Of a DNA stretch of 64,000 bases, positions 15,236-51,310 are shown piece after piece (within the stretch, counting starts at the first letter, position 1; every line of letters begins with the position of its first letter). The position numbers and the translations under genes are program-made. Source of the stretch: Podarcis cretensis (lineage: Eukaryota); contig OX638154.1 in assembly GCA_951804945.1 (NCBI GenBank), positions 45,818,001-45,882,000 of the forward strand. Reading direction: 5' to 3'. The notes under the pieces were generated by a model. It was not told the origin of the DNA. It ran no database searches and saw nothing but the letters and a program-made list of their open reading frames with translations.

Positions 15236-15371
15236 CTGTGTAGCTGATAGAAGGTGCTGAATTATCTGGTCCTTCATTTGGGTCTGAGGTTCCACCTACT
15301 GCCGTCAGTGCCTCTTCCTCTTCCTCCTCCTCTTCCCTGACCTCAGGTACTTCCTCCTTTGGCTGTTGCAT
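15236..15371 (-). CDS. PPARD: PPAR-delta first coding exon (acidic A/B domain); the exon extends 5' to about 15475 as UTR
   Basis: MQQPKEEVPEVREEEEEEEEALTAVGG...SYT, donor GT at 15235-15234, acceptor ttccttgaag at 15477-15476. The six coding exons sum to 1329 nt = 442 aa + stop. Confidence 0.93.
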
Positions 15372-29271: not shown

Positions 29272-31632
29272 TCACAACCTTCCTCTGGCAGCTTGTATCT
29301 GGTTCTCTAAATCATAAAGTCTTTGTGTTTGCCGCCTCATCCAGCCGACCAGCAGCAACAAACTGATCACTAGCGCCACTTGAAATAATAAAATCACCAC
29401 AATAGGGTGGAGAGCAATATTTAGTACTCCATTTGAACTTGGAGACCATCCAAGAAGCACCTCCCACCAAGCGTGGTCTCCAGCAGATTTAACTGTGGCT
29501 ACAATCTGGGCAATCTCCCTATTGCTATGCAGAATCTCAAGTGCAGCATTTTCACCCATGTCTTTGATTTTCAACAATTCCTGCTTCAGGGAGGGGTGAG
29601 AAAGCAGGTTTTTCAGAGTAGAAAGGCCAAGGCCTAGAGAAATAGGTGAGATTTCTCGATACAAAGAGGGGTAAGCCTTCATGTGCTGCACAGTCCAAAC
29701 AGGTACCCGAAATTGGAAATCACAGCCTACAAGCACACTAATATTGCAAAAACAACGGTTAATATAAGGCAGCATAGGCTGGATAACCAGACCATTAATG
29801 ATTACAAACTCACATGGCGTTCTTACACAAATACAGCCCTTCCCAGTATACACAACAGTAGAACTTTCTTCTTGGATTACATCAAAAGAGCAGCGGGAAC
29901 TATTTACAAGCTGAGGAGAGAAGCATTCGTGGTGTTCTTCTAAACTGCTGTCATCACATACAAAGCCCAAGTTTTCCTTTTTCGCACAACCTTGCACATT
30001 AACTGTTTGCCAGTCACCATTCCTCATCCGTGCCCACCTATTGGAGTCCCTGGAATACATGACCAAATCCTTGTCAATCTGGAATCCCAAGGGGACCACT
30101 GGATAGATTGGGATGATCTGGGTGGCTTCTACGGTTATTAAAAATAACCGCAGCATATTCTGGGCAGAATCATAAGATGCATTTAGCAACCTCCACCAAG
30201 CCTCCAAGGCTATTTCTCCTGAAGTGAGCTCTGGCCGAATTAAATTGCTCACCTCCATGGGAATGTTTCCCGCCTTGGCCTCTCGAATCATTCCCATGAC
30301 TACATTCTGTGTGATTGCTTGTGCCTGTTCACATGCTAAAGCCAATGAAACATTGCTTTGGAGGGACTGGATTCCAGACACAATCAACAGGCTGTCCTCT
30401 TCTAATATTGCTTCCCAGACTGGAAGCACTTTACTGATAGCTTGTGGTTGTTCTGTGAGCTGCAAGAGAGATTTGGTTAATGGGGCAGTCAGTTTCCCTA
30501 TTTGTTTTGTGGAATATGAAAGTTTATTAGCCAAGACTTCTATGTTGGCTGCATCTATGAAAGAAAGACCTGCTCCTAGGGGCCCAAGCCAATCCATCAG
30601 TTCTCTTTTAACCCTTTCCCCATGATGTACTCCATCCCACATTTTAACCCACTCCATCCAACCTCTGTGGCTGACTCCGAGAAAGGGAGCACATTGAGGT
30701 GCTCTCTGTGACACATTCAAACCCTCAAAATGAATCTGCACCTCCTTTAGTGAGGTCTGGGGGTGCATGACAATTTGTTCAGGCTGATCTAATTTCAACA
30801 CATGAGACCCAATGATGGGGTTGGTCAAATGGCGAAGTGGGAGGATGTCTGTGATCAGGGGATTAAATGTAAAAATTGTTTTGTTTTGAGAGCCAAATTC
30901 TACCCGGTATGAACCTTGCTCACTTATTTCCTCTGTGATGGCAACAAAACCATAGACTTTAAACCTAATAGAGGACATTTGTTGGTCACAGTGTGTCCCC
31001 CTGATCGGCACCACCCAGTCTGGTGGCCCCTGTTTAATTAAGTCCATTCCATTTAATTCCCACTCCTGAGATTCCCAATTAACGATCAGGCGGGTGATGT
31101 TCTTTCCGGAGGGCGAAATCAAGGACAGTTGGAACTGATCTCCAGGAAACCTAGTGTTCTGGGTTCCAACAACAGTTCGCAGATGCAGCGGTGCACCAGG
31201 TTTCCATAAAGCAGCAGAAACGAGGGCAACATCACATGAACCATCCTGGATGCTGCTGCTTCCAGCTGAACGAGAATCCAGGTGTGTAGGCAAAGGTCGG
31301 CAAGAAACAGGAATGCGAACACTTGAACTGGCCGTCTGCATGCTGTAACAAAAATGTCCAACTTCTCCACTGGTCTTGAGGGTGCAATTGGCTATGTCTC
31401 TCCAGTGGCAGCTGACTGAGTCTGAGACGGCATGGAACATGTAGAAGCTCTGGAACACTCCAGGGTTGGATCCATTGGCGTACAATCCATGCATGCGACA
31501 AAGCAACCTTGCTTCAGCTACTCCTCCTTTTGGCAGACAGGCCCACAACTTCACAGGGATGGCAGACACATTCGGGCTGGCAGAAACAACCATCCATCCG
31601 TTCCCCAGGAACAGCAGTAAAGGCAACAACAT
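29272..31632 (-). CDS. Intact endogenous retroviral envelope-like glycoprotein, 786 aa, candidate domesticated env
   Basis: Stop-free ORF (track shows 821 aa; probable start is M36, aggATG, just after a splice acceptor). Signal peptide MLLPLLLFLGNGWMVVSA; 10 N-X-S/T sequons; furin site RVKR (30615-30604, aa 340-343); fusion-peptide-like ELMDWLGPLGAGLSFIDAA; heptad-like helix; 11 Cys in the TM ectodomain; membrane-proximal WWEVLLGWSP; anchor HPIVVILLFQVALVISLLLLVGW; short tail. Confidence 0.9.
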   Translation of the reverse strand: MLLPLLLFLGNGWMVVSASPNVSAIPVKLWACLPKGGVAEARLLCRMHGLYANGSNPGVFQSFYMFHAVSDSVSCHWRDIANCTLKTSGEVGHFCYSMQTASSSVRIPVSCRPLPTHLDSRSAGSSSIQDGSCDVALVSAALWKPGAPLHLRTVVGTQNTRFPGDQFQLSLISPSGKNITRLIVNWESQEWELNGMDLIKQGPPDWVVPIRGTHCDQQMSSIRFKVYGFVAITEEISEQGSYRVEFGSQNKTIFTFNPLITDILPLRHLTNPIIGSHVLKLDQPEQIVMHPQTSLKEVQIHFEGLNVSQRAPQCAPFLGVSHRGWMEWVKMWDGVHHGERVKRELMDWLGPLGAGLSFIDAANIEVLANKLSYSTKQIGKLTAPLTKSLLQLTEQPQAISKVLPVWEAILEEDSLLIVSGIQSLQSNVSLALACEQAQAITQNVVMGMIREAKAGNIPMEVSNLIRPELTSGEIALEAWWRLLNASYDSAQNMLRLFLITVEATQIIPIYPVVPLGFQIDKDLVMYSRDSNRWARMRNGDWQTVNVQGCAKKENLGFVCDDSSLEEHHECFSPQLVNSSRCSFDVIQEESSTVVYTGKGCICVRTPCEFVIINGLVIQPMLPYINRCFCNISVLVGCDFQFRVPVWTVQHMKAYPSLYREISPISLGLGLSTLKNLLSHPSLKQELLKIKDMGENAALEILHSNREIAQIVATVKSAGDHAWWEVLLGWSPSSNGVLNIALHPIVVILLFQVALVISLLLLVGWMRRQTQRLYDLENQIQAARGRL

Positions 31633-31644
31633 CCTGGAAAACAC

Positions 31645-31670
31645 CTGAGAGAAAGAGAACAGAAAAAGGA
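31645..31670 (-). promoter_or_regulatory. Strong 3' splice acceptor feeding the env ORF
   Basis: Minus strand reads tcctttttctgttctctttctctcAG|gtgttttccaggATG, with the ATG 12 nt into the exon. Confidence 0.75.
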
Positions 31671-32324
31671 TCTCCGAAACCCCAGTTGCCTGGGTATGCA
31701 TCACTACTGCAACTCCAGTTCTTTGATGAGGCATCACTGACAGGTGCAGTATCCATGAGAAAGAAAGGACTGCTGGTCCAAGTTAGCAATCAGAATGGCT
31801 ACTAAGTGATGGACTGGATTCAGATTGAGACCAAGAATCCTGGGGGTATATATTTCTGCTCAGAAAACAGGTTATAACAAGGGACTAGTGGCCCACCTGG
31901 AATACATGCCAGTGGCACAAGCCAGCTAGCATATTTTACTTATTTTACTAGCTTTCTTCCAGAATAATCTTTTCCAGATTTAGTATCCAGAAATCAGGGG
32001 ATTTCTAGTGACCCAAGATTAAGAGATGCTTGGCATCCCTGAAAAGAGAAGAGAAAGAAACCTTTTTATTTAGTTGTCTACACACTTGGCATTCAACATG
32101 GAAATTTTTGGCCGTAATGCTCAACAGACAGTCAAAGAATAGCAAATCAATTTCTACTTTAATTATGAAATTTAAAAACTTTCCACTTCTCCCAGCACTG
32201 GAAACTTCCACTCTGCATATTCTAGGGCAGTTCAACAATTATCAGTGTTTAAATGCTTGTTTTTCTTTTCTTTTTTACTGAGATGGCAGGACAATCCAGA
32301 AGGTATTCTGGGCATGGGGATAGA

Positions 32325-35060
32325 GATTTATTCTATTTATTTAACAAAATTTAAATACTGCTTGCCTGTAAGAAAACCTCTAAGTGGTTTAAAGGGATCC
32401 CTGACCGTTAGGTCCAGTCATGGACGACTCTGGGGTTGCGGCGCTCATCTCGCTTTACTGGCCTCTAAGTGGTTAACGTAAGTATAAAATAAAGCATTAA
32501 ACCTCAGTATAAGAACAGTTAAAATGGGTATTTAAAAACATGTAGAAGACTATCATAATCAACACTAGTAAAAAAGAGAGAAGTGCTTATGTAGCTTCTA
32601 CATGTCTGAATAGGACTGCCAAAACAAAAATGTTTTAAGCAGATGGTGAAAATTACAGCGAAGGTACCTGCCTGATGTCAAGCAGGCAGGGAGTTTCAAA
32701 GTATAGGTGCTGCTACACAGGAAGAACAATTTCTTCTAAGTATTGAACAAGTATTATGTGGCACCAGTAACGCTGCCAGTTCTGCAGATCAAAGCAGTTG
32801 AGGGAGCATATATGGAGTAAAGTGATCTTGCAAGTAAAATGGCCCCAAGCTGTTAAGGGCTTTATATCCTAATAGTACGTAATTCCTCGAACTTGGCCTG
32901 GTAGCAAATGGGCAACTGGTGCAGAACTCAGAGCAAGGGTGTTATATGCAGACAGGGTTTCATTCCTGTCAGTAACTGTGCAGTACAGTAACTAATTGCA
33001 GCTTCTGGTTCAAGTGCATGGGAAGCCCCACAAAGACTGCATTGCAGTAATCCCATCTTGAAGTCACCAATGCTTGAACTACTGTGGCCAAGCTATCCTG
33101 GTTCAGGATTGGCTGTTGGTGTCACCCTAGTTGCAAAGTAAAGGGCACTTCTAGCAAATGAGGCTACCTGGACCTCCACTGGCAGAACAGGTTCCAGAAG
33201 CACCCCCAAACTGTGTACCTGCTCCTTCAGAGAGAGCGCATCCAGGGAAAGCAGTTGACAAATTTCTTGGACGAAAGAATCGCTCACCCACAGTATTTCT
33301 GTCATGCCAGGATTCAAGCTTAACATATTTTCCTTCACCCATCCTACCACTGGATCCAGGCACCAGTCCATGGCCCACACCACCTGCCCTGATGCAGGTG
33401 TGATGGAGAAATAGAGTGAAGTGTCATTAGGATCCTGATAACTCATTGCCCACAAACTCCTAATGATCGCTTCAAGCAGGTTCATGTAAATATTAAATAT
33501 CACTGAGGAAAGAATAGTGTCATCCTGCTTCATGTAAGTGCAAAGGGCCACAAAGCACTCTCCCAAAAAGCATTGTCCTGTAAGTAGGACACAAACCATT
33601 GGAATACAGTGCCCTCCAATTAACATTTGACAGTCTTAGTCCAGTAGGATACCATTGTCCATGATACTGAAAGTCGCAAACAGAGCGAAAAGTGAAAGCC
33701 AAGTTGCACTCCCCTTGTCCCGCTCTTCGTAAAGGTTATCCATCAGGGCAACCAAGAGAGACTCAATCCCATGACCAGGCCTGAACCCAGATTGAAACAG
33801 ACCTAAATAATCCATGACATCCAATAATGCTTGCAGCTGCCCTACCAGAATTCTCTTCACTACCTTCCCCAATAAAGGTAGTTGCAACTGGTTGGTATTC
33901 TAGTCCAAGGGGTTCAGGCCTGGCTTCCTCAGGAGAGGTTGCACCACAGCCTCTTTCAAGGGAGTAGACGCCATCCCCTTACGGACTTCAGTGCCAACCA
34001 CACTGGCCCCAAACAGTCAAACCCCCCCTGCTAGCTTTAATAAGCCAGGAGGGACAGGGATCAAGAGGATACATGGTCAGGCATATAGCCAGCACCTTGA
34101 CTACATCAGCAGACTGCATCAGCTGAAACTGATCTCACAACACATCACTGACTATGGCACTGGGTATTTCATCTAGAACTGCAATAACCGCAGAATTAAG
34201 GTCACTCTGAAGTCAAGTGACTTTATCCTCAAAATATATAGCCAGTTGGTCACAGTAGGTCCTCTAATGCTCCAGAGGTCCTTCCCCCTCTGTGGAAGTC
34301 AGTAACCTCCAGAATGTTTGAAATAATTCCACTGGCCAGTGACTAGAGAATGCAATGCAAGCTGTGAATGCGCCTTCTTTGCAACTTGCATGCGCTGCCA
34401 CACGGTTGGCACAGTTACTGCACTAACCAGCGTTCAGTCAGCTTCAGAGTGAGACTTGTGTCACTTGCACTCTAGTCTTCATTCTGCTTGCTTCATAGCC
34501 CGAAGCTCTCTAGAATACCAAGGAGCTGCCCTGGCTCCATAACGCCATAGAGGATGCTCAGGAGCGATCATGTCAACCACTCATTTCATCTTGCTACTCC
34601 ATAGTGAAACCAGGGCATCAACAGGATTGTCCAGACTGTTTAGGAATTCCTCAAGAATTCAGGAACTCCTTAAGTTCCATTAGTCTCTGAGAGTGGGCCA
34701 TCCAAACAGGCCTACTTTACTACTAATTACTACTAATGTTCCAACCATGACAAGGGACTGAATTGCATCCCCCCCCCCCCAAAAAAAAGTTTGACCTCTC
34801 CCTCATATCACTTGGGCTAAAGACAACATCAAAAGTGTGCCCTGCCTGATGTGTTGGACCAACGACCATTTAAAAAAGTCCCAGGGCAGTTGATGGACCA
34901 CCTACCGTACATTCCCAGTTAGCCACTCAACTCCAGCTATACTTTCCCCCACCCATCAACACTGAAACTGGGGGAACATATTCACAACTCCTTCCTACCT
35001 GCCCATCCAGACACATCCTGGCACCATCATCCAATGTCACACTATACAGCTGGGCAATTA
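32325..35060 (-). mobile_element. Decayed L2-clade LINE (APE endonuclease and RT remnants); ends approximate
   Basis: RT fragments LPLLGKVVKR...FQSGFRPGHGIESLLV...IMDNGILLD and SLNPGMTEILWV...VHSLGVLL, endonuclease motif GPTHQAGHTFD near 34860-34830, many stops and frameshifts, A-rich tail near 32325. Confidence 0.85.
32390..32461 (-). mobile_element. 5'-truncated Sauria SINE nested in the L2 3' end
   Basis: Matches the 3' end of the 9740 SINE; perfect 13-bp TSD cctctaagtggtt at 32377-32389 and 32462-32474. Confidence 0.8.
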
Positions 35061-35067
35061 GGGCCAC

Positions 35068-35151
35068 AGATAATAAACAAAGGTGGGCACATCCCACACT
35101 TTCAGATGGAGATAATAAACAAAAGTGGGCACATCCCACACTTTCAGATGG
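35068..35151. repeat. 42-bp tandem duplication
   Basis: agataataaacaaa(g/a)gtgggcacatcccacactttcagatgg x2 with one mismatch. Confidence 0.9.
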
Positions 35152-35276
35152 AAGGTAGTAACTTCATAACAACTCTCCTTATGCTGTCTCTCACTCAGAG
35201 GGAACCCACAAAACCAAGTTTCTCCTCTTCCTGGCTTTCACAGGCCTGCTTTCCACATTCTCATTTTCAGTGTCCT

Positions 35277-35645
35277 AGAATCATAGAATTGTAGAGTTCG
35301 AAGGAACCCTTAGTGTCATCTAGTCCAACCCCTTGCAATGCAGGAATCATAGCTGAGAAACCCTTAACATATCCTTGACAATCCAACCTCTGAGGTAGTC
35401 AATTCCGCTATCGAATAGCTCTTACCACCAGAAAGTTCTTTCTCATGTTTAGACAGAATCTCCCTTCCTGTAATTTGAATCCACTGCTTTGGGTCCTACC
35501 CCCTGAAGCAGCAGAAAACAAGTTTGTTCCATCTTCCATACAACAGCCCTTCAGATATTTGAAGATGGCTATCGTATCACCTCTCAATCTTCACTTTTCC
35601 AGGCTAAACATACCCAACTCCCTCAACCATTCCTCACAAGGCTTT
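35277..35645 (-). mobile_element. CR1 LINE 3' fragment
   Basis: agaatcatagaattgtagagtt...ctagtccaaccc CR1 tail in reverse, followed by RT C-terminal remnant. Shorter tails lie near 48975 and 61455. Confidence 0.75.
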
Positions 35646-37501
35646 GGGGGTACCCTGCCACAGTTGATCCTACTGCACACATCAGATTCTGCACCTACAC
35701 TACAGCTATATCCACTCAACAAGCAGTAAAGCAGAACCACTAACTGCAATCAGCACAAACACTTTCTAACCTGAAGGCAGAGATCTAACAGCACAAAAAC
35801 TGTGTAGACATCCTGTAGATACGATATTATTATGGTATCAACATGATTGTTCCACACTCCTGTCAAAATCTCTTGTGGGGTTTCCAAGCACTTGCTGCTG
35901 CTGAAGGAAGCCACAGAGAAGCCTGCATTTTAAAATGCAGCCAGTGGTCCAGGGCTGCTGCAGCCTGTTCCAACTGTCTCTCTGCAGCTCACTTCCCTTC
36001 ATCATACTATAATTCACAGTGCCACCTATCTATGCCCAATCAAACTTCAGGGTGATGGCATTCTTGCATATTTATGATATGTAAGCTATATTAAATTGTA
36101 TTTATTATTTTCTCAATAAAACTGTTTTTTGAATAAAAACCTGTAAATGGCCCTATAGACAGCAGGAAATTCTGATTTATTTCTGCCTTAAATGCTTGTT
36201 TCCTTACCTTCTTAGTTGCCCTTCTCCAATCTGTTATCCTCCAAAAGCTTCAGACTATAACTTCTTTCATTCTTGACTGTTGGTCATGCTGACGGGGGCT
36301 GATGGGAGTGAATTCAAAACACTGGAGGGCACACCAGGCTGAGGAAAGCTGTTCAATGCCATTAAACCCAGACTTACAGCAGAAATCTAACCATGTCTAC
36401 TCAGAAATAAGTCCAATTGACTTCAATGAAGCTTACACTCAGGTAATTTGGGTTAAGACTGTAGCCTTACTTTCTTTCGCAAGTGGCCAATGCTTTGGAT
36501 TCTGAACAAAAGCCTATGCTGAACTTTCATATAAGTTAATTTTATTTTTCAAGAACTTCCAGCCAGAAGCTAGTGGGTTCCTCTCCCTCTCTGTTTTCCT
36601 AGGCACAGAGAGAAACTGCCACTCACACCAACAATTCAGCTTTGTACTGGTAGCATTGCAGTCTAGGCTGCACTCATCCAAGACAGCTGGAAAAGTGTTT
36701 AGCAACCCTTCTGCCCCCTCTACAGATGCCTCGAGATTGCTGACTGAACAGTGAGAAATCTGGAACTATTAACTTTACAGAGTTGCATTTTCTCACCTCA
36801 TTTGCCAGTCACATCAACACTTTCCTGTCTGGCACCCAAATACATTTTCAGTGTGCAAAACTAAAACACCTGCGGGTGAACAGATGGCCCTGCAACACTA
36901 AGACTATCAGACACTATGCCCATGAGGGAGTAAGAGTCATATCATTGTACACCAACAAACGATGGCACCAAGGCCAACAAGGCAGTGCTAAGTCATAACA
37001 AAATCTACCACACCATCCATTCTGCCAAGGACAAAGTCTCCTGAAGAGATCAGAATCAGAGGCTTCAGAGCAAATTCCAAGGGCATCATGGCAGGTTCCC
37101 TCATCCCTGGAAAAGGTTCCAGTTTAACAACAACATGGGTAAAAAAATAAGATGAAAACACTTATTAAAATTCCTGCCTCTTAAAATCTTAAATCTAACC
37201 ACTGGAAGTCAACCCCCAAAAGGGTGATTTCCCAATGCTTCTCAAAAGTGCTGAAGCTTGATCAATCTCAAAATAACAGAATTTCCAAATTAATGTTGCA
37301 GCCACCAAGCACACCTTGCTTCCAAACAATCAAGAGGGCCTCCTTGGCTGATCTAAGATGTATCTTTATATTTTAAGATTACAGAAAATGTGAGGAGTCG
37401 TATATGTCTACTTATTTCAGAGTGAAGAAAGGAGAGAATCTCAAAAAGGTTAACTTCAGGCAGAGGTGCCTCCAACAATAATTTGTCAGACTTTAAGAAT
37501 A

Positions 37502-37727
37502 CAGTGGTACCTCAGGTTAAGAACTTAATTTGTTCTGGAGGTCTGTTCTTAACCTGAAACTGTTCTTAACCTGAAGCACCACTTTAGCTAATGGGGCCTC
37601 CTACTGCCACTGTGCCGCCAGAGCACGATTTCTGTTCTCATCCTGAAGCAAAGTTCTTAACCCAAGGTACTATTTCTGGGTTAGCGGAGTCTGCAACCTG
37701 AAGCTTATGTAACCTGAGGTATCACTG
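37502..37727. mobile_element. Tc1/mariner-type MITE, family A (reverse orientation to the 55313 copy)
   Basis: TA|CAGTGGTACCTCAGGTTA...TAACCTGAGGTATCACTG|TA. Confidence 0.85.
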
Positions 37728-40700
37728 TAGTGGCCATTTTTTCACAAGCATGAATTTAGAACTAATCCAGAATAACAAAACAAGTGAGGATTAGAATCTG
37801 GACCACACTTTACAGAGCAGTTGCTAGAAACCCCATCAGTAAAGAGGAAAAACAAGACAATGTCATAGGAACGTATTTTTTTTCACAAGGAAGTTCAAAG
37901 CTCTGTGTAGAAACTTCTCTATGAGTCATTCATGAAGAAGGAACAAAGGCTTTCTATAGAAATCTAGAGATTTTTCCTGTGGAAATTTTAGCATGCTTAC
38001 ATCTAAGTGAAATTTTTGAGGGTGAATACTTTAAATATATCTATATATATATAAAATAAAGAAATGCATATTCAAGCCAACAATTCAAAAATTGCTCTTC
38101 TGGTAATAAGGGGCTTGGGGAGTTCCTTTTCCTTCATGAAACAAAGTGGGTTTGATGAAAAAACCCCTCAAGTCTGGAGCATTGAATTGCAGTATTACAA
38201 AAGACAGGTCCAAACCTTCTCCAATCAGAGCGGACTATAAATCTTGTCTCTTCAGAAGTAAGATTACTTTAGATAACACTGTGAGGATTAAAAACTGAGC
38301 AAACAACAGGAGACAATTCTGTTAATGATTTTCACAGGGATTAGTAAGGCATAATAGCTCTCCCACATTTCTCAGGGCAGCGTATTTTTTCTCCCCTCCA
38401 CCTCCCAAAAAAGGACATCAATCACTGTTACTGGTTTTTGAGTCCAAAACAAGAAAAATGTTGGAATTGATGGATTGTCAAAAGGTATTAAGAAAGAGTT
38501 GCCAAGAAAAGCGACTTCACCTGTCATAAAAGTGAGCACAGAACGAAGTGGCAGCAAAAATGGCAGGATCTCACTAGCCTGTACTTGTCTTCAGAAATCT
38601 CAGATTTTTCAACTATATATATATATGGGTAACACATTTACACATCAAATAAAAAATGATGTAATACTATGCTGGGAGGATGGGGCAGTAGAGAAGACAA
38701 CAAAAGGCTTTGCTCCTACTAATGTTCAACATCAGTTTTAGTATGACATTTATCACCACTTGGGACTCTCATTTGCTCACCAACCCTGCCAAACCCCACA
38801 CTGTCTTGACAACTCCCATCACCCCAACACCCTTACAGCTCCTTCACCCCAACACCCCCACATACCCATCACAACCCACCCGGTTTCCAATCTCTATCTC
38901 ACAGTTTGTCCAAAACTCGTGCCTCCTCCAACATTTCACCCTAGTCTCAAGATCCGCTGTCACCGTCAATCACAGAGAAGAGGGGCATGAAGAGAAGAGA
39001 GCTTTCCCCTCTTTCAGCACGCACCACTTTCACTGGCAGAAGAAAGCGTGCATTTATAAATGGACACTTCTTTCTGGTGGCAGTGAACTAAGGAGAGAAT
39101 GTTTTCAACCTGTAGCAGCAGTGGCGACAATGACGGGGAGCACCCCTTCAGCTTGTCTCCCCTCATTGTCCACGCATGAAACCAAGCTAGGAGGCAGCGG
39201 GTGGCTGCAACAACAACAGGAGGGACATGGGAATGCCCACCTGGGCCACCCACCTACCCACTTGCTTGTTCTGCTGGCCTGTTTACTCATGCTACTGACC
39301 TGCCTGCTTTGGTCACTCACTCTGCCCGCTGTTGTTGTGTTGCAATTTATGTGGTTGCCAACTGGCAGTCACACAAATTGCAGTGTGAAAAACTTTCTCA
39401 TATATAGGAAGATATAAAATGCCCCTACTCGGAAGCATCTGTTAAAAATAGGTTTGGTTACTCCTGAAAGCTAGTATCTTATTTCCTATTTTAAAACAAC
39501 GCAAAAGGCCCGTGAGAAAGTTTTCCTGCCAGGGTGTAACCCTATCTGTACATCTGAAGAGCAGCATCTCTTCCCAGTCAGCTCTCTTGCCAGCATCAAG
39601 GCCACATATGGAAAACAGACTGAAGCTTTTTTGTCAATAAATACAAATAAGACCATGGTCATAAACTCAACTCAGAAATGTAATGAATGTGGGAACAGAC
39701 TGCGATATAGTTATACTAAGAGTGAAGACAGCAAGAAGACCCGTGGGGTTCCTTTCAACTCTATAAGTCTAAGATTAATTGGTTGTGGTTTATATCCTTC
39801 TATTTCCCCAAGAAATGCAGATCAGAATACCAGATGTTTTGGTGGTGGTGTTTTAAGTAAGAAATTATTTATAAGGGCCTTGAGAAGTCATTTCAAGAGC
39901 AGCAAAGGCTTTTCCAGAGAGGGCAGTTCTGAACTTTGACAAATGGATGCTTTTCTCTTTGGTAGACTTTTAGCATGCCTCAGTTATATGGTCTTTGCCC
40001 AGCCAAATTCACCACAGATGCTGACCATTTGATTGGGCAGCTGTTCCTGCACTCTGCATGCTTCTTGAAGACTGTACACCACCAGGGCAGTGTTTCTGAA
40101 ATGAAAATGTTGATCCTCTCAGAGGATGGGAAAGGACTGCGAAACTCCAAAGAAAAGGGCTTTATCTTGCAGATTGTTTTGTTTCAGATACAAACAAAAT
40201 TCCAGCTGTGAAAAGAAAGGATAGGACTTTCTCTAGTATGTGGCAACTAAAGAGGAACTGAATGGGTGAGTCTTACTCCAATGCCTTAATAGAGTTGATG
40301 GGTGGGTACTAAAAATTTTAGTCAACAGAAGGGATGAACATGTCACAGTCGTCTTTGAAAGATGGACCATGTACATGCACAGATTATATATGGGTTGGCA
40401 CAGAGAGACACTTAAAAGAATAGCAGCTGCAAGTAACTGCATCACTATTGTAAATTTATATCCCATGTCCTTCTCCAAGGAATGGTGGCTTAAAAATAAA
40501 TAAATAGTGAAATCAGAGTAGATCTATTAAATTAATGGACCCAATTCAGTCATGTTTCAGTGGATCTACTCTGAGGAAAACTCAGTTGAATAACACCCAT
40601 TGCTTAAAAAAATAAAATGTAGTGTAAACCTCCAAAGCCTCAAAGATAATCAGTTTTCAATTGTGCCCAGCATCTGTATACTACTGAATATTTTGAGGAC

Positions 40701-42357
40701 TTTGCTGTATGCACTATACAGCAGTTTTCACAACAATGGCAATATCTCTAAGTATCATAATTGATGTTTCATCAGCATTTGCACCTTAATAGCTCTACTT
40801 GACTTGTGAAATGGCTCTGTGGGAACAAAAAATTTCCTGCTGAGTCTGTTTGGAATGTTACGCTGCTTTTCAATTTTAGATTTTAATGCTCAGTCTCTAA
40901 AAGAAGAAAGACAGTACATTGCCAACACCTAAAATCCTACAACATCTTCCACATTAAAATGACCATATTATGAGTCACTGCTGGCAGAGTTCAGCTATTT
41001 AGAAAGAGAAATGCCAGTGCTTTACTTTAATAGCATATTATTACCAGGTGCTCAAATATAATCTGCTTCAGGAAGAAACTGTTATACTAATGTTGCATGC
41101 TCACCAAAAAGTTCAGAAAATCACACTGCAGGCTTTCATTTCATTCGGGCGAGATGGAACACAGCTGATCTGTGTCTCTGGACAAAGGCAGAGCCTATTG
41201 AAAGCAGACTCAGCAGAAACCCGATGCTGATATACTGAGCTTAATTAACACAGTTGCTGTGAAAGATTCAGGGCAGTGGCATGTTGAACTACCTTCCATG
41301 CGAATTTTCATAACAAAACTCTCACCACTTATTCATGATCCTGCAGCTCAAACAAACAGAACTGAGAATAGATCAGAGGCCACTCACACGTCTCCAGCCT
41401 AGATCTCTGTAAGCCCTAACACAGCGTCTCCTTTTCCAAATGCTAAGAAAACATAAATTAAGGTCTTACTGACTCCAAGCAATACATTGTCCCTACATTA
41501 CAGAACCCTAAACATCCTCTTGCCTGCACACTGGCCGCAGTATATTAAAACCATGAAAAACAGCAACTCACCCACCAGGAGAATTCAGCCGAATGCCTGC
41601 AGCATCTGAAATGAGCATGTGACTTTTGTGTACTTCTCTATCGCTCCGCCTCTGCCACCTGCTCAGAGTGTTTATGGAATTGCTGGCCAAGAAAATAGCA
41701 CAGCTACTGCTTCATGACTGCACTCAAATTCCTTGCCCTTTCTCAGTACAGTTTTAGAAGAGGGTTGTACATGAAGCACTTGCTTAAGCCAGGGGAAGCA
41801 GGGAGTCCCCAGAAAATTCACTGGTGGTGTTACAAGCCAGTAATTCAGACCCATGTCATGATCAGGGTGCAGGAGGCTTCTTTTGAATTGAGGCAGTGGT
41901 CACCCACAATGACCCAGAGCATATAAGCCAGTTTTGCTCCCCACCCCCACCCCAACATACACACTTTTTCATTCATGTTTACAAAGTTCCTGAAAAGAGC
42001 TTTTGAAATAAAAATCAGAAAAGTAAAACAGGCAGAAGCTGTTCTTTTGCCATGGAAATGACACAGTCACTACACCACTCCCTGCTATTATGCCAAATGT
42101 AGGTAATACAGAGAAGATAAGCAGGCAGGTTTCAGAGTGAGCTCTCCCTCTTTGAACAGGGGGTTAGAACTCCATGACTACCAACTAGAAATGAGAAGGG
42201 AATGTAGTTTTCTGAACCAGACCAATGACCACAAACACAAGCCAGAATTACCATCCATCCCATACCTACTCTTCACTGAAAAGCCTCCTGATGTTTATTG
42301 TCAAAGATACCTTAATTACCGTACAAGGCTATGAGTATCTAATGCTTTCAAGATCTT

Positions 42358-42422
<65 letters not shown>
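42358..42422. repeat. (CA)n(GA)n compound microsatellite
   Basis: Read directly from the sequence. Confidence 0.92.
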
Positions 42423-42426
<4 letters not shown>

Positions 42427-43174
42427 TTAATGTCACCTCATTAGAGAATCAAAAATCTTTAACCAATTGACTAATCTAGGGCAGAGGTAGTCAAAGTGTA
42501 GGACTCCAAATGCTCGGACTACAACTTGTATCAGCCCCAAGCATTGGACATACTGGCTGAATCTGATGGGAACTGTAGTGCAAAACATCTGTAAGGCCAC
42601 TGGTTAGCCACCCTAATCAAGATGGGGTTTTTTATTTTTAAAAAAGACAACAGGGCAAATTACCACTAAAATCTCTCTAATTTCACAATATCATTAAATA
42701 ATCTTGTATCAAACATACTGCCAGCAAGTCATTTTAACCACTCTCTCTAAGTCTCTCTTTCCATGCCAAAAAAATAATAATTCTACCCTCAGCAGGAATG
42801 AGAAGAGCTATACCATTGTAACTCATGATATATCTAGAACACATACACTACTGTAACTCATATTTTACACATACACACATACACACACATTTCCCAATCT
42901 TGCCTTTTCTCATGGAGATGGATAAAGCAGGTGTTAACCTGCATGCCATTCCTAAAGTTCTTCAAAATCACCTTGACTCATCAGACTGAGGCAGACAAAG
43001 GATTCAAGACATAGCTGAACTGGCACACACTGACTACCCTGCACCCAGCTTTTGCAGAAGCTAGTGGATCCAAATGTGCTGTTCTAGCCAACTCCTTTTT
43101 CCTGGCCAAACCTGGTAAGTCTGCCCAGCAATAATTATATGGATCTTCCTAACCATATTCCTTCACCTACAATG

Positions 43175-43410
43175 GTTTATTTTATTGACTGACTGCTTTT
43201 ATATCCCACCTTTGTCTCCAAGGAGTTCAAGGCGGCATACATGGCTCCCCCAACCACCCTCGTCATTTTATCCTCACAACAAGCTTGGGAAGTAGGTTAG
43301 GCTAAGATACAGTGAGTGGCCCATGATCACACACTGAGCTTCATGACTGAGTGGGGATTTGAACCCTGGTCTCCTAGGTCCTAGTCCAACACTCTAAGTA
43401 CCACCACACC
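43175..43410 (-). mobile_element. Old tRNA-derived (MIR/Squam-like) SINE
   Basis: ttatcctcacaac...gtaggttaggct...ggggatttgaaccctggtctcc. Other tRNA-headed SINE fragments lie near 2560-2700, 26025-26075, 46980-47170 and 51390-51440. Confidence 0.6.
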
Positions 43411-46143
43411 CCATACACAATTTAAACATGAACACACAGAGCATCTGCCAGGTTGCAGGGTTAGTTTCTGGGTGTGAAGGGTGCAGATGGCTTCCCATTT
43501 GCTGCTCCATGGAAGCACATGATGTGTAGAAGAAATGCTGTCACACACAGGGAAGCCGTCCTCTCGCAGGGAGCACTTGCATTTGGCCTTGGGCTCTAAG
43601 TGCACTGAGTGGTCTCTACATCTTGCCACCTGCATGCACAAACAATAGGCAACACAGTGCCCTCTGTCGTCTAAATTGTGTCTACTCTTGTTACTGAGTG
43701 AACTATACTACACGTGCATTTTTAAAAGAAACCTGCATTACAAGAGCCATTCACAATTAATCCTGTCTATTTGTCGCAACACAAGTATATTTTCAAAACT
43801 GGTAATTCGCCTTAAAAGTAAAAGAGTTCAATTTCTATTAAAGCATTTTGTTACTCTCCCAAACACAAAGCAATCAGAGCACACTAAATATCACTGCTTA
43901 TCAACCAGTTAAGAAATTCATTCTTCTCCCCTCCTGTTGCCCACTGGTCAGGTAAATAGGAATATTTGGATTTTACTCTTCATCCCCAGCAAAAAGGCAA
44001 CAGCAGGGTCACTGTTCCTACTCTGGAAGTGCTTGCAGTGGTATGGCAGGGATTTTGTATCCCCATTTCAGGCTTTTGTTTTTACAGAGGGTGTGAACCA
44101 TGCACAAAACTTGTTCTATCATGAGGATCACTTCTTGAAGGACTCTGCCTTGTGATTACAGTGTAACAAAGGGCACTCTAAAAGTTTGGCATTTTCTTTA
44201 CAAAAGCAATAACATAAACAATCGTTTCACAATCAGTATCAAGCTACATATTCATATTTAAAAGGAAGGCGTCTGTTTATTTATTTGCTACCTGCCCTTT
44301 ACTATAAAGTCCCTGGGTAGGTTACAACCATAAAAATATACAATTATAAAACAAGTAAAACAGTTATAAACATAAAGCAAGATAAGTAAAAACACTTCCA
44401 TTTAGAAAAAGTTAAAAACAATTCCACAAATTAAAAACAGTTTCAATATAATTCAAATACAGATGCATTCATTTTATAGCAACTATAGAAGTGAAATCTA
44501 TTGTACCCTGCCCCTAGAATGTTAGGATGAAAGGCAGGTTGAATACCCTTAATAAATAATAATTCTTCCTTCTTCTAAGAAAATATGACAAGTCCAATGA
44601 AGATGCAATGGTGATATGATTAAGACAATATTAAATTATAGAAATAAATCTTCTGCAATAAACAGTTTTGTTACCATCAGAAAGTTAAAGATTAAAGTAA
44701 ATGTAAGAGTGAGTTCAAGATTCCATTTTGGATATACATTATATTATTTTTGCTGTTATCTGGATTATGTTCTTGTATTTTATTGTTGGACCTTATTATG
44801 AATTATCAATGGACTAATTTTAATGCATATTTGCTAACATGATTTTTTTCATTAGCCTATTGTTTATATGACTATTTAAATTTTGGTATGTATTGTAATT
44901 GTTAGTGAATTATCTTACATAAACTTTTTGATGTGAGCCATTTTGAGGATGGTTCAGCATGGAAAAGTGGCATACAAATAAATAATGGTGCCGATAATAA
45001 ACAGAAAGCTACTTGGGATTTCTTTTAGGTTTCAGATGCTCCACTTCATTCCAGCTAATCTCCATATACCACAAAACAATGACAATGGTCCATGCTAGTT
45101 CTTTCAGCACACCACTGGGTCAGCATAGGCGAGAAAAGATCACATTGCACAAAATTCCAGGAAACATAGTAGCTCCTCCATTTACTCAAACATTAATTTA
45201 CAACCTTTAGCTTTACTGAACTGGCAGTGTGGGAATGCCTTAAAAATGAACAGATGAGTTTGCAGAAGAGCACAAACAAAACCACTATAATTTTCTGTCC
45301 TCATTTCTGAAAGGCTACACAGAGGGTGGAGTTGTGCACTATATCAAACCTGGTAAAGCCAGGGAAATACATGCCGTAACTTACACCTGGTACTAAGAAA
45401 CAACAGCCTTGTCTTAACCAAGGTAACTAGGCTTGTGAATCAGTCAGCTAAGCCTTGCAAAGATAGGCAGTGACAGTACTTACAAACTATATGTGAATCC
45501 TTTTCATGTAGCAGAAATGCACAGAAAGGTATTCAACTAGGTTTCAATGAAAGTAGACCCATTAAAATTAGCTGACTTTATACAGTCATGTTCATTAATT
45601 TCAATGGGTCTACTCTGAGTGAAACTTAGTTAATTACCACCCATATCATTTAATGAACAGGATTTGGAACAATTTCAGGGACTAACAGTATTTTACAAAA
45701 ACACAGGAAAGCATCAGTATCTAACATGCACTCATTTAAACACTAATAATTCTTCTTTTTCACAGAGGGAGTGCTGTAAGACACAGAGAATAAACTACCA
45801 AACATGAGTGGTGAGAATTTAGCAGCATGCTACCCACAACTCCAACTCACACTCTAACTCCATAATACTGTAAAGCACAGATTAAAACAGAAGGTTTTAA
45901 AACAGAAGGTTTTACATTCTCTCGTTTATTACTGTATTTCACAGATAACACTGAGACATAGCGTGTTCATTTATATTTGTCAGCTGTTCAAACAATAAGA
46001 AGTACTATTATCACATGCAGAATATGAAACCAACAAAATCTGAAAACAACCCCCACATCCACTGCTGGGACTTTCCAGAGTATAATCCAATATATAATCA
46101 AATATACCTAGAACCCCAAACTGAGATTTTAAGAGCAGGTTAC

Positions 46144-46234
46144 CTCTTTTGACCAAATTTCTCCGTTCACCTGTTGGTGAAAGCCAACCTGTCGTTACCA
46201 TGTCAGCATGAAGGAAGTCCCAAGTGGAAAGAAA
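46144..46234 (-). other. PPARD: PPARD non-coding exon 2 (5' UTR)
   Basis: Acceptor gttttgctctcttgcag and donor AG|gtaacc flank 91 nt containing ggctttcaccaacaggtgaa, which resembles the mammalian PPARD 5' UTR exon 2 as I recall it. Confidence 0.7.
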
Positions 46235-48083
46235 CTGCAAGAGAGCAAAACACGTTTCAGCTCCATGCATAAACGGCACCAAAAAAAGGTTGCAATTTGA
46301 AGCATGTGTGAAGAAAAATGTACTGAACTGGGCTTCATTCCAAACCAGTAAACAGAGTTTTAGGATTTGCTTTAGATAAACAGAGAGAGATACACACAGA
46401 GAGGGATAAGGAACCTATGGCCCTCCAGATACTCTTGGATTACATTTTGCATCATCAACAACCACACTGGTTGTGGCTGATGGTAGATGGAGTCCAACAA
46501 CATCTGGAGGCCCACAAACTCCCCCATCCTAAGCTCAGAAAGTCATATTCTGGCTACATAGCTATGTTTTTCTTGTGCACTTAGATGGATACTTATTAAG
46601 GATCTAGTTGTAGTGCTGAAGAGCTCTTAAGGCAGTGGTTTTCAACCAGTGTGCCATGCACCCTGGGGTGCCCTGAATGATGGTCGGGGTGCCACGGGCA
46701 ACACTGTCCCTCTTTCCTTTATTCCCTCTTACATCTATGCCACCCAAAGGCATGTGTGGCTGTTTGTTGCAGCAGCCCTGGCTACAAGCTCCCGAGGTGA
46801 ATGGTGCCTCTGGGGCTGGCCAGGGGGTGCTTCCCAGGCCCCTGTGGGGCAGTGTGAAGAGGCACCTCTCTTTGGGGCAGGGGAGCACCTCAGAGACCAG
46901 GGGCAGCAGCTGTGGAAGCCCAGAGGACTTCCAAGGAGAGGGGCGAGGAGAGGAGGCTGAGGGAACATTTCAAGTGTGGTGAAGCAGGTAATAGTCGGGT
47001 GTCAGAATAAGACCTAGGAAATGTGGCCTCAATTCCCTGTTCATCAATGAAGCTCACTTGTTAGCTCTGAACTCTACTCACACAACTCTCTAAGTTTCAG
47101 CTGTCTCACAGGATTGTTATTAGGATAGAACAGGAGAGGAGAGAAGTATGTTCTCAGCTCCTTAGAGAGACAGAAGAAATATAAAAATACCTAGAAGTAA
47201 ACATAAAGTATGGGTCCCCTCTTATCACGAGAGAAAACAAGGACCCTTGCCCTACACCTCCCAAATTGTGAACAAAACCAAAGTTTATATGCGTTTTCTA
47301 TCCCTCAGTGCTCAATTTTGTTTTCCATTGTCTTAGCTCATGGACAGAATGAGCTAAGGTGCATATTAAGGAGAGGTTTTGAGCATTCACTGTTGATGCT
47401 GGGGAGAAAGAAGTTAAAGAACCCTTTGACCTTGTCCACTGACTCACTCCCTTGTGATAAGTTTCAGACAATGACGCTGGCCCTTCATTGCTCAATTCAA
47501 AATATGGTTCCTGTTAGTGGTATTTTCTGTCATGCAAAGCTTGAGAATGACCTTCTTACTAGGCCAGGAGTGGGAAACTTGTTAGTCTACCAAACACTGT
47601 TGGACTATAACTCCCACTATCTTTGATCACTGACCATGCTGGATGGGGTTGATTTGGAAGGCCCACAGATCCTCCCGTCCAGCTCTTGTGTAGCTAAATA
47701 ACTTTTAAGGGATTTGCTCAATTTCCTTTGATGGCTGGTGGCTACCACAAAGCCACTAGAATGTTTGAATCACATCCCATGTTCCCGTGTGGGAACCGAA
47801 AAGTTAGGTATATAGTTGTGGACACAATCCGTTCCAGGGTGTTGTTCACACCCCAAAAAGTCTGCAACTAGAGCAGCATTTCTGTGCAAGCGCGGAGCGC
47901 AATAGAGCACTTCTGCATGTGCATGTGTGGCAAAACTCGGAAGTATACACTTCCAGGTTTGCCGCATTCGCAAGCCAAAAAGACACAACATGAAGCTAAC
48001 ACAACACAAGGTATGACTGTAGTAGTTTAAATATATCCAGGAAAAGAGGAAGTTGAGTCCTTGCAGCTGCCTGGTAAGAAATA

Positions 48084-48411
48084 CAGTGGTGTCTCGCAAG
48101 ACGAAAAGAATCCGTTCCGCGAGTCTCTTCATCTAGCGGCTTTTTCGTCTTGCGAAGCAAGCCCATTGACGGCTTGGCGGATTAGCGCTATTAGCGGCTT
48201 TTAGCGGCTCATCGGTTTAGCGGATAAGCAGATAAGCGGCTTAGAAAAAGGGGGGGGGAGGAAAAAGAACCCGCAGGAACTCACAAGACATTTTCGTCTT
48301 GCGAAGCAAGCCCATAGGAAATTCGTTATGCGAAGCACTTCCAAAACGGAAAACTCTTTCGTCTAGCGAGTTTTCCGTCTTGCGAGGCATTCGTCTTGCG
48401 GGGCACCACTG
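48084..48411. mobile_element. Tc1/mariner-type MITE, family B (opposite orientation to the 10921 copy)
   Basis: TA|CAGTGGTGTCTCGCAAGACGAA...TTCGTCTTGCGGGGCACCACTG|TA. Confidence 0.87.
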
Positions 48412-50599
48412 TAGTATCAGAAGTCTGCTGTTCCTTTGGGGGACTGACTGATGCTGTGTTAAGGCTAGCATTATCACATTGCTGTCCAGTCTGACTTATA
48501 GCTTCCTCCCCATGCTAATTTTGCATGCATGTAACAGATAAGTATCATGGACACATTGTAAATCTGAACAAACACCTCCAAGCATCATGTGAATCTGTCT
48601 CAACTTTAATAAAGGCTTTGGGCAAGGGTGGGGAACCTTTTTCGCCAACCTGCAGGCCAACTTTGACAGATTTAACAGGACCAGCCCAACACCTAATGTC
48701 ACATATAGGCCAGGTGTGGGTGGTTTGAAACTGTCCTCAAGGACCAAACTGGGTCTGGGACTCTGTGCTGGGCCCAGTTTGGCCCACAGATGGGAGCTTC
48801 ACCATTTTTGGTTTAGGGATTTTTCACAAGATAAGCACCAAAACCAGAAGCAAACCAGAGCATTTTGAAAGACTCTACACCATGACAAATATGAACCTTT
48901 TACTTTAATAAATTTCAGAAAGCAGCAACTATCAAAGACGACAGCATTTTCTTCAAAACCTTTTTAACATCCTAGAATTGCAGAGTTGGAAGGTACCACA
49001 AGGGTCATCTGGTCCAACCCCCTGCACTGCAGGAATCTTTCACCCAACATGGGGCTCAAACCCACAACACTGAGATTAAGAGTCTCATGATCTACCGGCA
49101 GAGCCATCCCTGAAGAACTTGAGCAAGTATAATTTTATCACTATTCCAACTGTCAAATAATAAAGGGCAATAACTAATGTTCTTTTAAAACATCTCTTTC
49201 CATAAAAAAGTTATTTAGAATCAAATATCATAATCAGGAATGTATTTTATTTAGTCCACTCAGTACTCTAAATTTATCTTGAATATCAGGCTAAGATAAA
49301 ACGATATCAGGATAAGAACAGAGTGAAGCACAAATCTACCATTCTGTCTCTTTCTATCACTTTTGTTGACAGCTGTTCTTTGGAGTTTTTCTCCTCTGTG
49401 GCTTAATAGTATGTCTGTTTGCCAGCACATGCTTCCACTTTCCTTCATCCTTCTCAAGACCCCATCAAAGCAATGCAGCCCACTACACTACTAAAAAGAG
49501 GATAACCAGCTGGGCAGAGGTAGCAGATCATGGTTGCTCTCTCTGGGCAGCATGCTATGAAGGACTGGTCTTCATGGTGCCACGGGGGGGGATAAGCTGC
49601 CCCCCTCAGCTTGTTTGATCTTTTCTCATTGTCCCTCTTGTCACCACAATAGGGAAAATAAGGATTGGAGTCCCTGGCTCCAATTCCCATTGACGTGCCA
49701 CCCAGAGAGAGAGGATAAGGCAACAATTCCATGCAGGGCCAGCTGACTTTAATCATTCTGGGTTCCCAAGTAGTGAGGACTGGGTAAAACCTACAGTACT
49801 GCACCCCCTAGAGAGGGCAAGAGGGTTGAGGTGACAGCTCAGAAAGTGTTGCAGAGCCTCCTCCTCCCCAAGACAGTAGGCAAGCAACTCCTGCCAGGAT
49901 AGCCACTTTTTTCTCTGGGCATCTCGGCTGGCTCAACTTCTCTCTGCAGTGCCATCTACAGAGGAGAGTGGGCAAAGGCAACAGCAGCTACCTTCACTCT
50001 TTGACTGGGTGGTGTGCCCAGCCCTTTATCATTGCACCTCCCTACAGGCAGCGTCAGCCGGTCCCCGCCACTGCCACTCACTTCCCTACTTTGCTGGGAA
50101 AGGTAGTAGCATCAGCTGCCCTTTTGCCATCTGCCTCTGAATGGGAAGGGGAAAGGGTGAGGAGGGGATACTGCTGCCACTCCCTTGGGGGACACACTAG
50201 GCAAAGGGGACTGGGCCCAGCAAGTCCAATCCTCACCCTCTCTACTTCCAATGTAGAGGGAAGGGGGCAAGCAAGCAAGGAGAGGAAGCAGCGGATCATG
50301 CAACGCCGCGGGGCCCGATCCTCCACAGCATGCTACAAGCAGGCCCGATCCGCCACTCGCTTTGGTGGGTGGGGTGTGGATTTTGGAGAATGGGGGTTTG
50401 TTGTTGGGGGCGAGTTGCCCAGGAAGCAGCATAACCTAGGACTGGGCTGGAGGGAAGGAAAAGCTAAGACGCAGGTTTTCCTTTTATGTTTTCTTCCCCC
50501 CTCCTTCCAAGGGGGTGGGGGACGGGAGGAAGGGGCAAGGGAGCACCAGCTGTCCTGTGCCGTGTGCCTCCATCCTTCCCCAAAGCCTGAGAGGCGGAA

Positions 50600-51310
50600 G
50601 GGGGGGGGGTGCTGGTGTCACCGGGCAAGGCACGCAGCCAGGCAACGGGGCCAAGCTCAGCTGCAGCCGACCTGGAGCAGCCGCCACTGGGCACCCCGGA
50701 GGCGGACAGGCCTCGGCAGATGCCCCAGGGCACCAACAACCCCCCCCCCCCCCCGCCAAGCCCCCGTCTCGCGAGGCGCCACACAGAACTACCCCCGTCC
50801 CAGAAACGCCGCCCGCTTCCCCCGCCACCTCACCTGCCGGCCACGAAGGGCGCGCGCTCCCCGGCCGCCCTCGGCGCAGAACTTTTGTCATGAGAAACCC
50901 CAACCCGGCCCGACAACCACAGCAATCTCTCTCGTCTTTTTTTTTGTCCCCGCCCACCCTCTCGCTCGCGTCACTCGCGCTGGGCCTGGCGTCACCGCGC
51001 ATCGCCACCCCCGTTGGCCAGTCAGAGGCGCGAGGGAGGTATTAGCATATCGCCACGACGACGGACCAAGCCCGTTCCCGCCCCCCTGAGGAGAGAAGGT
51101 TCTCTCTCGTCAGCAAAGGAGGCCGACCCTGTGGTTGCTACCTCCTGCCCCGGTGGTCGTCGAGTGGTAGCGGGTTCTTCCGTGGAAGCGGCCGTCCCAG
51201 GGCGGAAAGTCCCTCCAGCGGGAGCGAGAAATGGACGCCCGTCTCCGACATCGGACAGACGGATGCAAACAGGGCCAGGGACTTTCTGCATCTGGTCGCG
51301 GTGCAGAAGG
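50600..51310. promoter_or_regulatory. CpG island / PPARD promoter
   Basis: Only long non-repeat GC- and CpG-dense stretch in the window; GC-box-like (ccgcc) and CRE-like (TGACG) motifs; lies between the DEF6 3' end and the PPARD exons. Confidence 0.85.
50834..51000 (-). other. PPARD: PPARD non-coding exon 1 (start approximate)
   Basis: Lies in the CpG island; strong donor CAG|gtgagg at 50833-50832; two TGACG half-sites near 50969-50995. Confidence 0.65.

Follow-up and report, generated by a model that had tools for sequence, protein, structure and literature searches.

A viral gene that lies in an intron in the sense orientation is normally harmful, and intronic proviruses so oriented are usually selected against. 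How such a gene can persist, and which promoter it may use, is the question raised by a 64,000-nucleotide stretch of the Podarcis cretensis genome (assembly GCA_951804945.1, contig OX638154.1, positions 45,818,001 to 45,882,000 of the forward strand; hereafter the window), in which a retroviral envelope (env) open reading frame (ORF) lies within PPARD, the gene of a fat-sensing nuclear receptor. An earlier note on this DNA had proposed that env is wired as an alternative terminal exon of PPARD, with one CpG-island promoter yielding either the receptor or Env. We find that env is an old domesticated gene entangled with PPARD splicing and apparently undescribed, that its splice acceptor is used in RNA, and that it likely shares a transcription unit with PPARD.

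A single-copy env gene kept across lizards and snakes

The uninterrupted env ORF (29272..31632, minus strand, 786 amino acids) is inside PPARD intron 2 and co-oriented with PPARD, which is on the minus strand of the window with all of its coding exons. The intron spans 30.7 kb (46143-15476) between exon 2 and the first coding exon, and the ORF and exon coordinates confirm that env stands past both non-coding exons and before the coding exon at 15475, as the note had placed it. One intact copy of env is observed in the genome; the seven other matches are short (25-41% identity), and four of the seven contain stops. These degraded relatives include C6:37186093-37186622, with others on C12, C3 and C10.

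Conservation is likewise a direct observation. Counterparts of Env, 79-98% identical, were found in 26 squamate species and are full-length in 24 as listed, in a survey covering 37 of the 43 members of five squamate protein clusters. The species span lacertids, an amphisbaenian, anguimorphs, iguanians, a python, boas, colubrids, elapids and vipers, and the nearest named proteins are those of Podarcis wall lizards (98-99%). The RxKR cleavage site is kept in all 13 named squamates compared, among which the ectodomain of the transmembrane (TM) subunit is 86-98% identical versus 73-96% for the surface (SU) subunit. In a tree of 30 Env proteins, lacertids plus Rhineura, anguimorphs, acrodonts, pleurodonts and snakes are each recovered at 0.998-1.0, and these groups are joined in an Episquamata clade at 1.0 with no resolved order among them. 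Where Env does not bear the PPARD name it is still a neighbour of that gene: the locus tags or accessions of the two are adjacent in Phrynocephalus and in Crotalus adamanteus, and both lie on one contig in Varanus. By these annotation records, the naming after PPARD described below and the tree, rather than by aligned genomes, the locus is orthologous across lacertids, anguimorphs, iguanians and snakes. Elapid Env proteins (P0028 and P0041; Naja and Notechis) are 25 amino acids longer, with a tail that by eye resembles another frame just past the window env stop (29280-29200), which suggests a late frameshift in elapid env.

Because the single intact copy has such closely similar counterparts in 26 lizard and snake species, the sequences identify env as a domesticated gene, and protein conservation indicates that it is presumably kept under purifying selection. 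The ORF stands without a surrounding functional provirus, as far as the following scans can tell. In agreement with the earlier remark that no long terminal repeat (LTR) promoter is visible, blastn of the upstream against the downstream intron found no LTR pair, the one match being 40 bp long and 80% identical. A Pfam scan of the minus-strand frames of the intron found no gag or pol, a weak negative in that the same scan overlooked a visible reverse-transcriptase remnant of a long interspersed element (LINE). This remnant, at ~33093-33900 on the minus strand, 1.5 kb upstream of env, gave no Pfam score, and from its motifs we take it to be a decayed LINE reverse transcriptase.

A recent or neutral proviral remnant, with use of the acceptor amounting to splicing noise, would fit the low RNA depth described below and the lack of a Pfam family match. 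This explanation is largely refuted by the intact, single-copy and widely conserved ORF, by a tree that matches host families and by the conserved furin site and ectodomain, and we consider it extremely improbable.

Env family and predicted product

Env gave no significant match in Pfam or PDB sequence searches. In a profile search, chicken Ovex1 ORF3 (NP_001159385.1) was the fourth of the 150 matches listed, and in pairwise comparison the two proteins are 35% identical over 511 amino acids (E 4e-103). This likeness to Ovex1 ORF3, which lies after gag-pol, marks the window ORF as an env homologue, and we call it an Ovex1-family env. Its product comprises a hydrophobic leader, SU, a furin-type site (RVKR, residues 340-343), a fusion-peptide-like segment, a cysteine-rich ectodomain, a membrane anchor (~735-765) and a short tail, with 20 cysteines in all. 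The CXXC motif of SU and the CX6CC motif of TM are absent, so Env is not of the gamma type. The earlier statement that env opens on a signal peptide holds as regards a hydrophobic N-terminal 19-mer (mean Kyte-Doolittle value 1.64), which is signal-peptide-like by hydrophobicity alone.

The AlphaFold model of Env is poor (pLDDT 46.6). Its best fold matches in the PDB are paramyxovirus F proteins and, in a viral library, one unnamed protein followed by epsilonretrovirus Env, so that the fold may fit a class I fusion protein, as a lead only; matches in the ESM Atlas (Baculo_F, Fusion_gly), all below 0.9, are also leads only. We consider a furin-cleaved, membrane-anchored class I fusion-type glycoprotein to be the most likely product. 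Because the cleavage site and TM ectodomain are the more strongly conserved parts, we infer that Env may have been kept for its fusion machinery, in cell fusion or adhesion, rather than for receptor blocking alone. We know of no function for the non-gamma Env family to which it belongs.

Gamma-type motifs are typical of syncytins. Like these, including the syncytin of Mabuya lizards, the window gene is a captured env with cleavage site and anchor kept; unlike them, it lacks the gamma-type motifs, and it is present in egg-laying and live-bearing species alike. Chicken Ovex1 belongs to the same Env family and shares the lack of CWLC/CXXC and CX6CC motifs. Ovex1, however, keeps gag-pol and its own TATA box and is described without a signal peptide, whereas the window gene is env alone with a hydrophobic leader. 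The two fall in separate clades, and the window gene lies inside PPARD intron 2; it is thus a relative of Ovex1 rather than its orthologue.

Other captured genes offer partial parallels. The percomORF gene of spiny-rayed fishes is also an old, intact, single-copy env in a host intron (DNAJC6); it too lacks a surrounding provirus, and host regulatory sequence drives it. It belongs to another host group, however, and is described with an upstream regulatory region that overlaps a host exon, not with splicing to host 5' exons (PMC12813294). Lyosin and other L1 ORF1 exons resemble env as retroelement coding exons domesticated in a sauropsid host gene, named after the host and alternatively spliced; Lyosin, however, serves as an alternative first exon of LINE origin and gives rise to a fusion protein, whereas env encodes a stand-alone protein in a terminal or cassette exon (PMC12129022). 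The gecko gene ERV-Spuma-Ppi/Gja, likened here by description only, is another env-only orthologous squamate gene, intact and under purifying selection, but it encodes a foamy-virus Env of geckos, is >96 million years old, and has no PPARD link in the abstract (PMC6669660).

Relatives of the family have been recorded before. BLASTP homologues of Ovex1 are reported in Anolis, Python, Thamnophis and Pelodiscus, with no mention of PPAR in the main text (PMC5006616), and these are probably the Env proteins described here. Ovex1-like endogenous retroviruses are known from crocodilians and tuatara (PMC4299795). PPARD does not appear in the main text or in 10 supplements of PMC12129022. Our literature search for PPARD together with env or retrovirus found no paper describing this gene; a 2020 survey of retroviral co-option, the Mabuya syncytin paper and the supplement of PMC5006616, which lay outside the search, may list it. 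Many unannotated Ovex1-family env ORFs are present in crane, owl, turtle and frog genomes (P0047, P0049, P0050, P0052, P0053, P0098).

The env acceptor and its use in RNA

The env ORF follows a splice acceptor (31644..31670, minus strand) with a polypyrimidine tract and a CAG|G junction, ...cctttttctgttctctttctctcag|GTG at 31645|31644, preceded by a 25-nt AG-free zone and followed 12 nt on by the ATG. The earlier description of this site as near-ideal is borne out: by a crude pyrimidine/CAG|G score it ranks second of the 2,220 AG sites in the intron (46143-15476). An in-frame ATG farther upstream, at 31734, is intronic, and the first Met in most of the other squamates compared aligns 3-4 residues before the window Met, at or near the acceptor. 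In Ovex1, 11 bp separate the start of ORF3 from its own splice site (PMC2717909). The short spacing between acceptor and ATG is therefore native viral anatomy and no sign of host rewiring, and by this analogy the env acceptor is probably a retained proviral one.

The acceptor that ranks first, an unannotated candidate (32038..32060, minus strand), precedes the env acceptor by ~400 nt. In Zootoca and P. lilfordi, models begin in, or read through, the sequence between this candidate and env.

RNA was surveyed in four runs from close relatives over 31130-51129, with 15 of 144 joints displayed, most of these being repeat artefacts. Depths are low, and the RNA status of three runs (X7, X13 and X14) is the tool's guess. 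Among the sequencing runs listed as containing the sequence, none is recorded as RNA, which has no bearing on whether env is expressed. The intron between PPARD exons 1 and 2 (50834>46234) is present in 4/4 runs. In record 9 of run X14 (941 nt, depth 5.5), bases 1-157 match 36362-36206 (6 differences), and the alignment of bases 158-670 is to 31642-31130. The junction 36208>31644 observed here is a splice from an AAG|GTAAGG donor into the env acceptor, so the env acceptor is used in RNA; it is the only junction into 31644 among the joints displayed. Env transcription is attested by this spliced contig, whose run has guessed RNA status, and by a few stranded env reads in run X22, all at low depth.

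The sequence spliced to env is an intronic exon (36208..36362, minus strand; hereafter the 36208 exon) that may be either a first exon or a cassette. It is repeat-derived: it overlaps old repeat fragments, and the 36200-36470 stretch has 39 further scored matches at 76-86% identity. No CpG island was found near it, the observed/expected CpG ratio being 0.09-0.13 at 36.2-37 kb.

The earlier note had the CpG-island promoter produce two mutually exclusive mRNAs through direct junctions, 46144>31644 or 50834>31644, such that splice choice would trade PPARD output against Env. The strength of the acceptor and its use in RNA suit this proposal, as does the naming of Env after PPARD described below. 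The break of the X7 env contig (2,701 nt) at 31646 fits a second path that joins there from an exon with a terminal AG, a feature of both exon 2 (GAG) and the 36208 exon (AAG). However, neither direct junction is among the joints displayed, which by their number neither confirm nor exclude them, and in X22 the env bin has a depth of 0.37, about two reads' worth and too little for a ratio. The X13 contig of 1,653 nt holds exon 2 at bases 57-148 of its record, and the displayed pieces leave the rest unplaced.

Annotation models linking env to PPARD

In 20 of the 26 species Env is filed as a "PPARD isoform", often under several accessions per protein, with no coding sequence in common with PPARD. 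The NCBI pipeline groups models by shared splice sites or coding sequence, and several models indicate which sites may be shared. Elgaria model X3 leaves env at a donor equivalent to 30038 and continues in a tail that matches PPARD exon 3 (15475) at 5/6 positions, the sole best of 2,083 downstream AG sites (next best 3/6). The Komodo dragon model KAF7254126.1 combines PPARD exon 2 (E 4e-10, both boundaries in register), a piece of env and an exon-3 tail; it enters env at an internal acceptor (30452 here) and exits at 30018, where snake models also leave env. In these models, the sharing of splice sites between env and PPARD is thus certain at the 3' side and probable at the 5' side, as second-hand evidence from annotation.

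The earlier note's reading of env as an alternative terminal exon is partly supported, by the used acceptor, the naming after PPARD, the exon-2 link in the Komodo dragon model and the lack of a CpG island near the 36208 exon. In both models, however, env is spliced onward to exon 3, and a scheme of two mutually exclusive mRNAs is too simple.

The internal sites lie within the env ORF on the minus strand. The acceptor (30452..30475, cag|AA) is in frame with the upstream ORF (uORF) of exon 2, is inferred from the Varanus model P0054 and lies beyond the read-covered stretch; the two donors, 30038 and 30018 (30018..30038), yield truncated Env isoforms in annotation models. Predicted isoforms of this kind in Elgaria, Crotalus tigris and Vipera (P0020, P0030, P0038) are 551-590 amino acids long, anchor-less and possibly secreted. 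Tails of the truncated snake isoforms found no match in the window (best 4/10).

Upstream of env, the Podarcis raffonei model X1 uses a LINE remnant as an exon (35426..35641, minus strand) that is in phase 0 with the acceptor at 31644 and ends in the donor GTG|gtaaga; residues 9-81 of P0014 match the remnant by tblastn at E 3e-25, and we take it to be CR1-like. The leader of Elgaria X1 had seemed by eye to resemble the 36208 exon, a candidate that we rejected when its score was reached by 126 of 500 shuffles; this leaves conservation of the exon outside lacertids unsupported. The leaders of Pantherophis and P0042 matched none of the candidate exons.

Upstream ORFs and a proposed route into env

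PPARD exon 1 (50834..51000, minus strand; 5' end unmapped and upper bound approximate) is non-coding and lies in a CpG island (observed/expected 0.77, GC 0.68 over 50500-51300), with the donor CAG|gtgagg at 50834|50833. Non-coding exon 2 (46144..46234, minus strand) has the donor GAG|gtaacc at 46144|46143 and contains a uORF that opens at a strong-context ATG (46201). When exon 2 is spliced to PPARD exon 3 (15236..15475, minus strand, ATG at 15371), this uORF terminates 99 nt short of the PPARD ATG. Exon 2 is strongly conserved: 16 residues of its conceptual translation, around the uORF start, are identical in the Varanus model KAF7254126.1, which suggests a conserved regulatory uORF in PPARD.

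The consequences for env depend on the path. A direct splice from exon 2 to env makes this uORF 62 codons long and lets it run, out of frame, to a stop 119 nt downstream of the env ATG, and in a direct splice from exon 1 a weak upstream ATG of that exon gives the same overlap. If the 36208 exon is included, the uORF stops 54-237 nt before the env ATG with 7/7 candidate cassette acceptors. Both direct mRNAs would be poor Env messengers because an out-of-frame uORF runs across the env ATG, in strong context for the exon-2 form. Together with the joints displayed, which include neither direct junction, and the onward splicing to exon 3, this makes the two-way switch of the earlier note quite unlikely; the trade-off between PPARD and Env found no support in this analysis and is, by our estimate, just as improbable.

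We propose instead that an Ovex1-related retrovirus inserted sense-wise into intron 2 of PPARD before the divergence of lacertids, anguimorphs, iguanians and snakes. Its gag, pol and LTRs would have become unrecognisable, with env and probably the viral acceptor retained by purifying selection. The PPARD transcription unit would now yield Env as a minor product by alternative splicing, its main route running from the PPARD promoter through exons 1 and 2 and one or more repeat-derived intronic exons to the env acceptor and an intronic poly(A) site. With an intronic exon included, the exon-2 uORF would terminate ahead of the env ATG; a direct splice from exon 2 would instead bury that ATG. Part of the transcripts would exit env at the internal donors and continue into PPARD exon 3. 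We infer both the promoter and this gating by the uORF. That at least some env mRNAs share the PPARD promoter is plausible and the better bet; that the cassette route is the main one is a reading we hold by a narrow preference.

The principal alternative is a nested gene, in which env is transcribed from its own repeat-derived intronic promoter near 36.4 kb (or at 35.6 or 32 kb) and the tie to PPARD consists of occasional read-through splices into exon 3 that make annotators merge the two. The only displayed junction into the env acceptor does start in the 36208 exon, in a contig with no exon upstream. Contigs, however, do not reveal transcript starts, of which none was listed for the runs, and one that begins at a repeat boundary may not mark a 5' end. 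The bin at 36466-37132 has zero depth in 4/4 runs, which fits a spliced cassette equally well. No strong acceptor lies between 36470 and 36362 (5-12 of 20 pyrimidines), one TTATAT occurs at 36534, and an mRNA starting with the 36208 exon would have no overlapping uORF. A nested env would also resemble percomORF in DNAJC6 and Lyosin in MYL4. Against it stand the lack of a CpG island at the intronic exon and the inclusion of PPARD exon 2 in the Varanus model. We regard the nested gene as possible but less than probable. The degrees of belief given here for promoter sharing, the cassette route, the nested gene and the trade-off refer to overlapping readings.

Several observations weigh against a PPARD-driven env: (i) The X14 contig has no sequence upstream of 36362 and contains no PPARD exon. 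(ii) No displayed read or contig connects either of the first two PPARD exons with the intronic exon or with env. (iii) In X7 the env depth (12) is near the intronic depth (3-9), and the guessed RNA status of X7, X13 and X14 bears on this as well. (iv) In RefSeq, Varanus and Pituophis have env as a separate uncharacterised protein, and so does a newer record for P. muralis, a point that also favours a nested gene. (v) The naming after PPARD could stem solely from env>exon 3 splices. (vi) KAF7254126.1 may be stitched together by the predictor, and it uses an internal env acceptor instead of 31644. (vii) Human PPARD has four alternative 5' ends at intronic exons (PMC2045109). The same source reports five extra untranslated cassette 5' exons in human PPARD, with exon 1 kept in most 5' variants, and the cassette and intronic-start routes would thus both have precedent there.

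Other features of the locus

The remaining PPARD coding exons, with bounds from tblastn, are at 12638-12474, 9439-9296, 8601-8395, 6956-6495 and 5195-4950, all on the minus strand. A candidate poly(A) signal for env (28295..28300, minus strand), the first AATAAA past the env stop (972 nt), is beyond the read-covered stretch. Long GC-rich ORFs cross the PPARD CpG island at 50298-51089 (plus strand) and 50484-51002 (minus strand) and are probably by-products of composition.

Age and significance

Relatives from turtle and alligator, each known from a partial model, share 81% identity with one another and 56-59% with the window Env, and branch beside the squamate set. Two unnamed relatives of 60% identity and a Rhineura paralogue fall between the squamate set and these proteins in the tree, and because they intervene, any orthology of env outside Episquamata is putative. 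As regards synteny, no PPARD record from alligator was present among the 120 of 358 matches listed or among the listed members of six PPARD clusters, and the PPARD entry of Pelodiscus gave no contig. The Rhineura paralogue, LOC133379298 (P0046), is a second, diverged env relative (49% identity) on another contig. A single capture in the PPARD intron before the split of lizards, turtles and crocodiles, dated to ~280 million years ago in PMC12129022, with the PPARD promoter feeding env and the exon-2 uORF acting as a gate opened by cassette inclusion, would be an unlikely though consequential extension of our proposal. If true, env would be the oldest intact retroviral env gene known.

Within squamates, env has been kept intact since the major lizard and snake lineages split, hidden in databases under the PPARD name. 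That split dates to at least ~170 million years ago. Because Env is filed under PPARD, gene-level expression counts mix a viral glycoprotein with a nuclear receptor. If the PPARD promoter indeed drives env, the locus would be a clear case of a viral gene in the sense orientation that survived by joining the splicing programme of its host.

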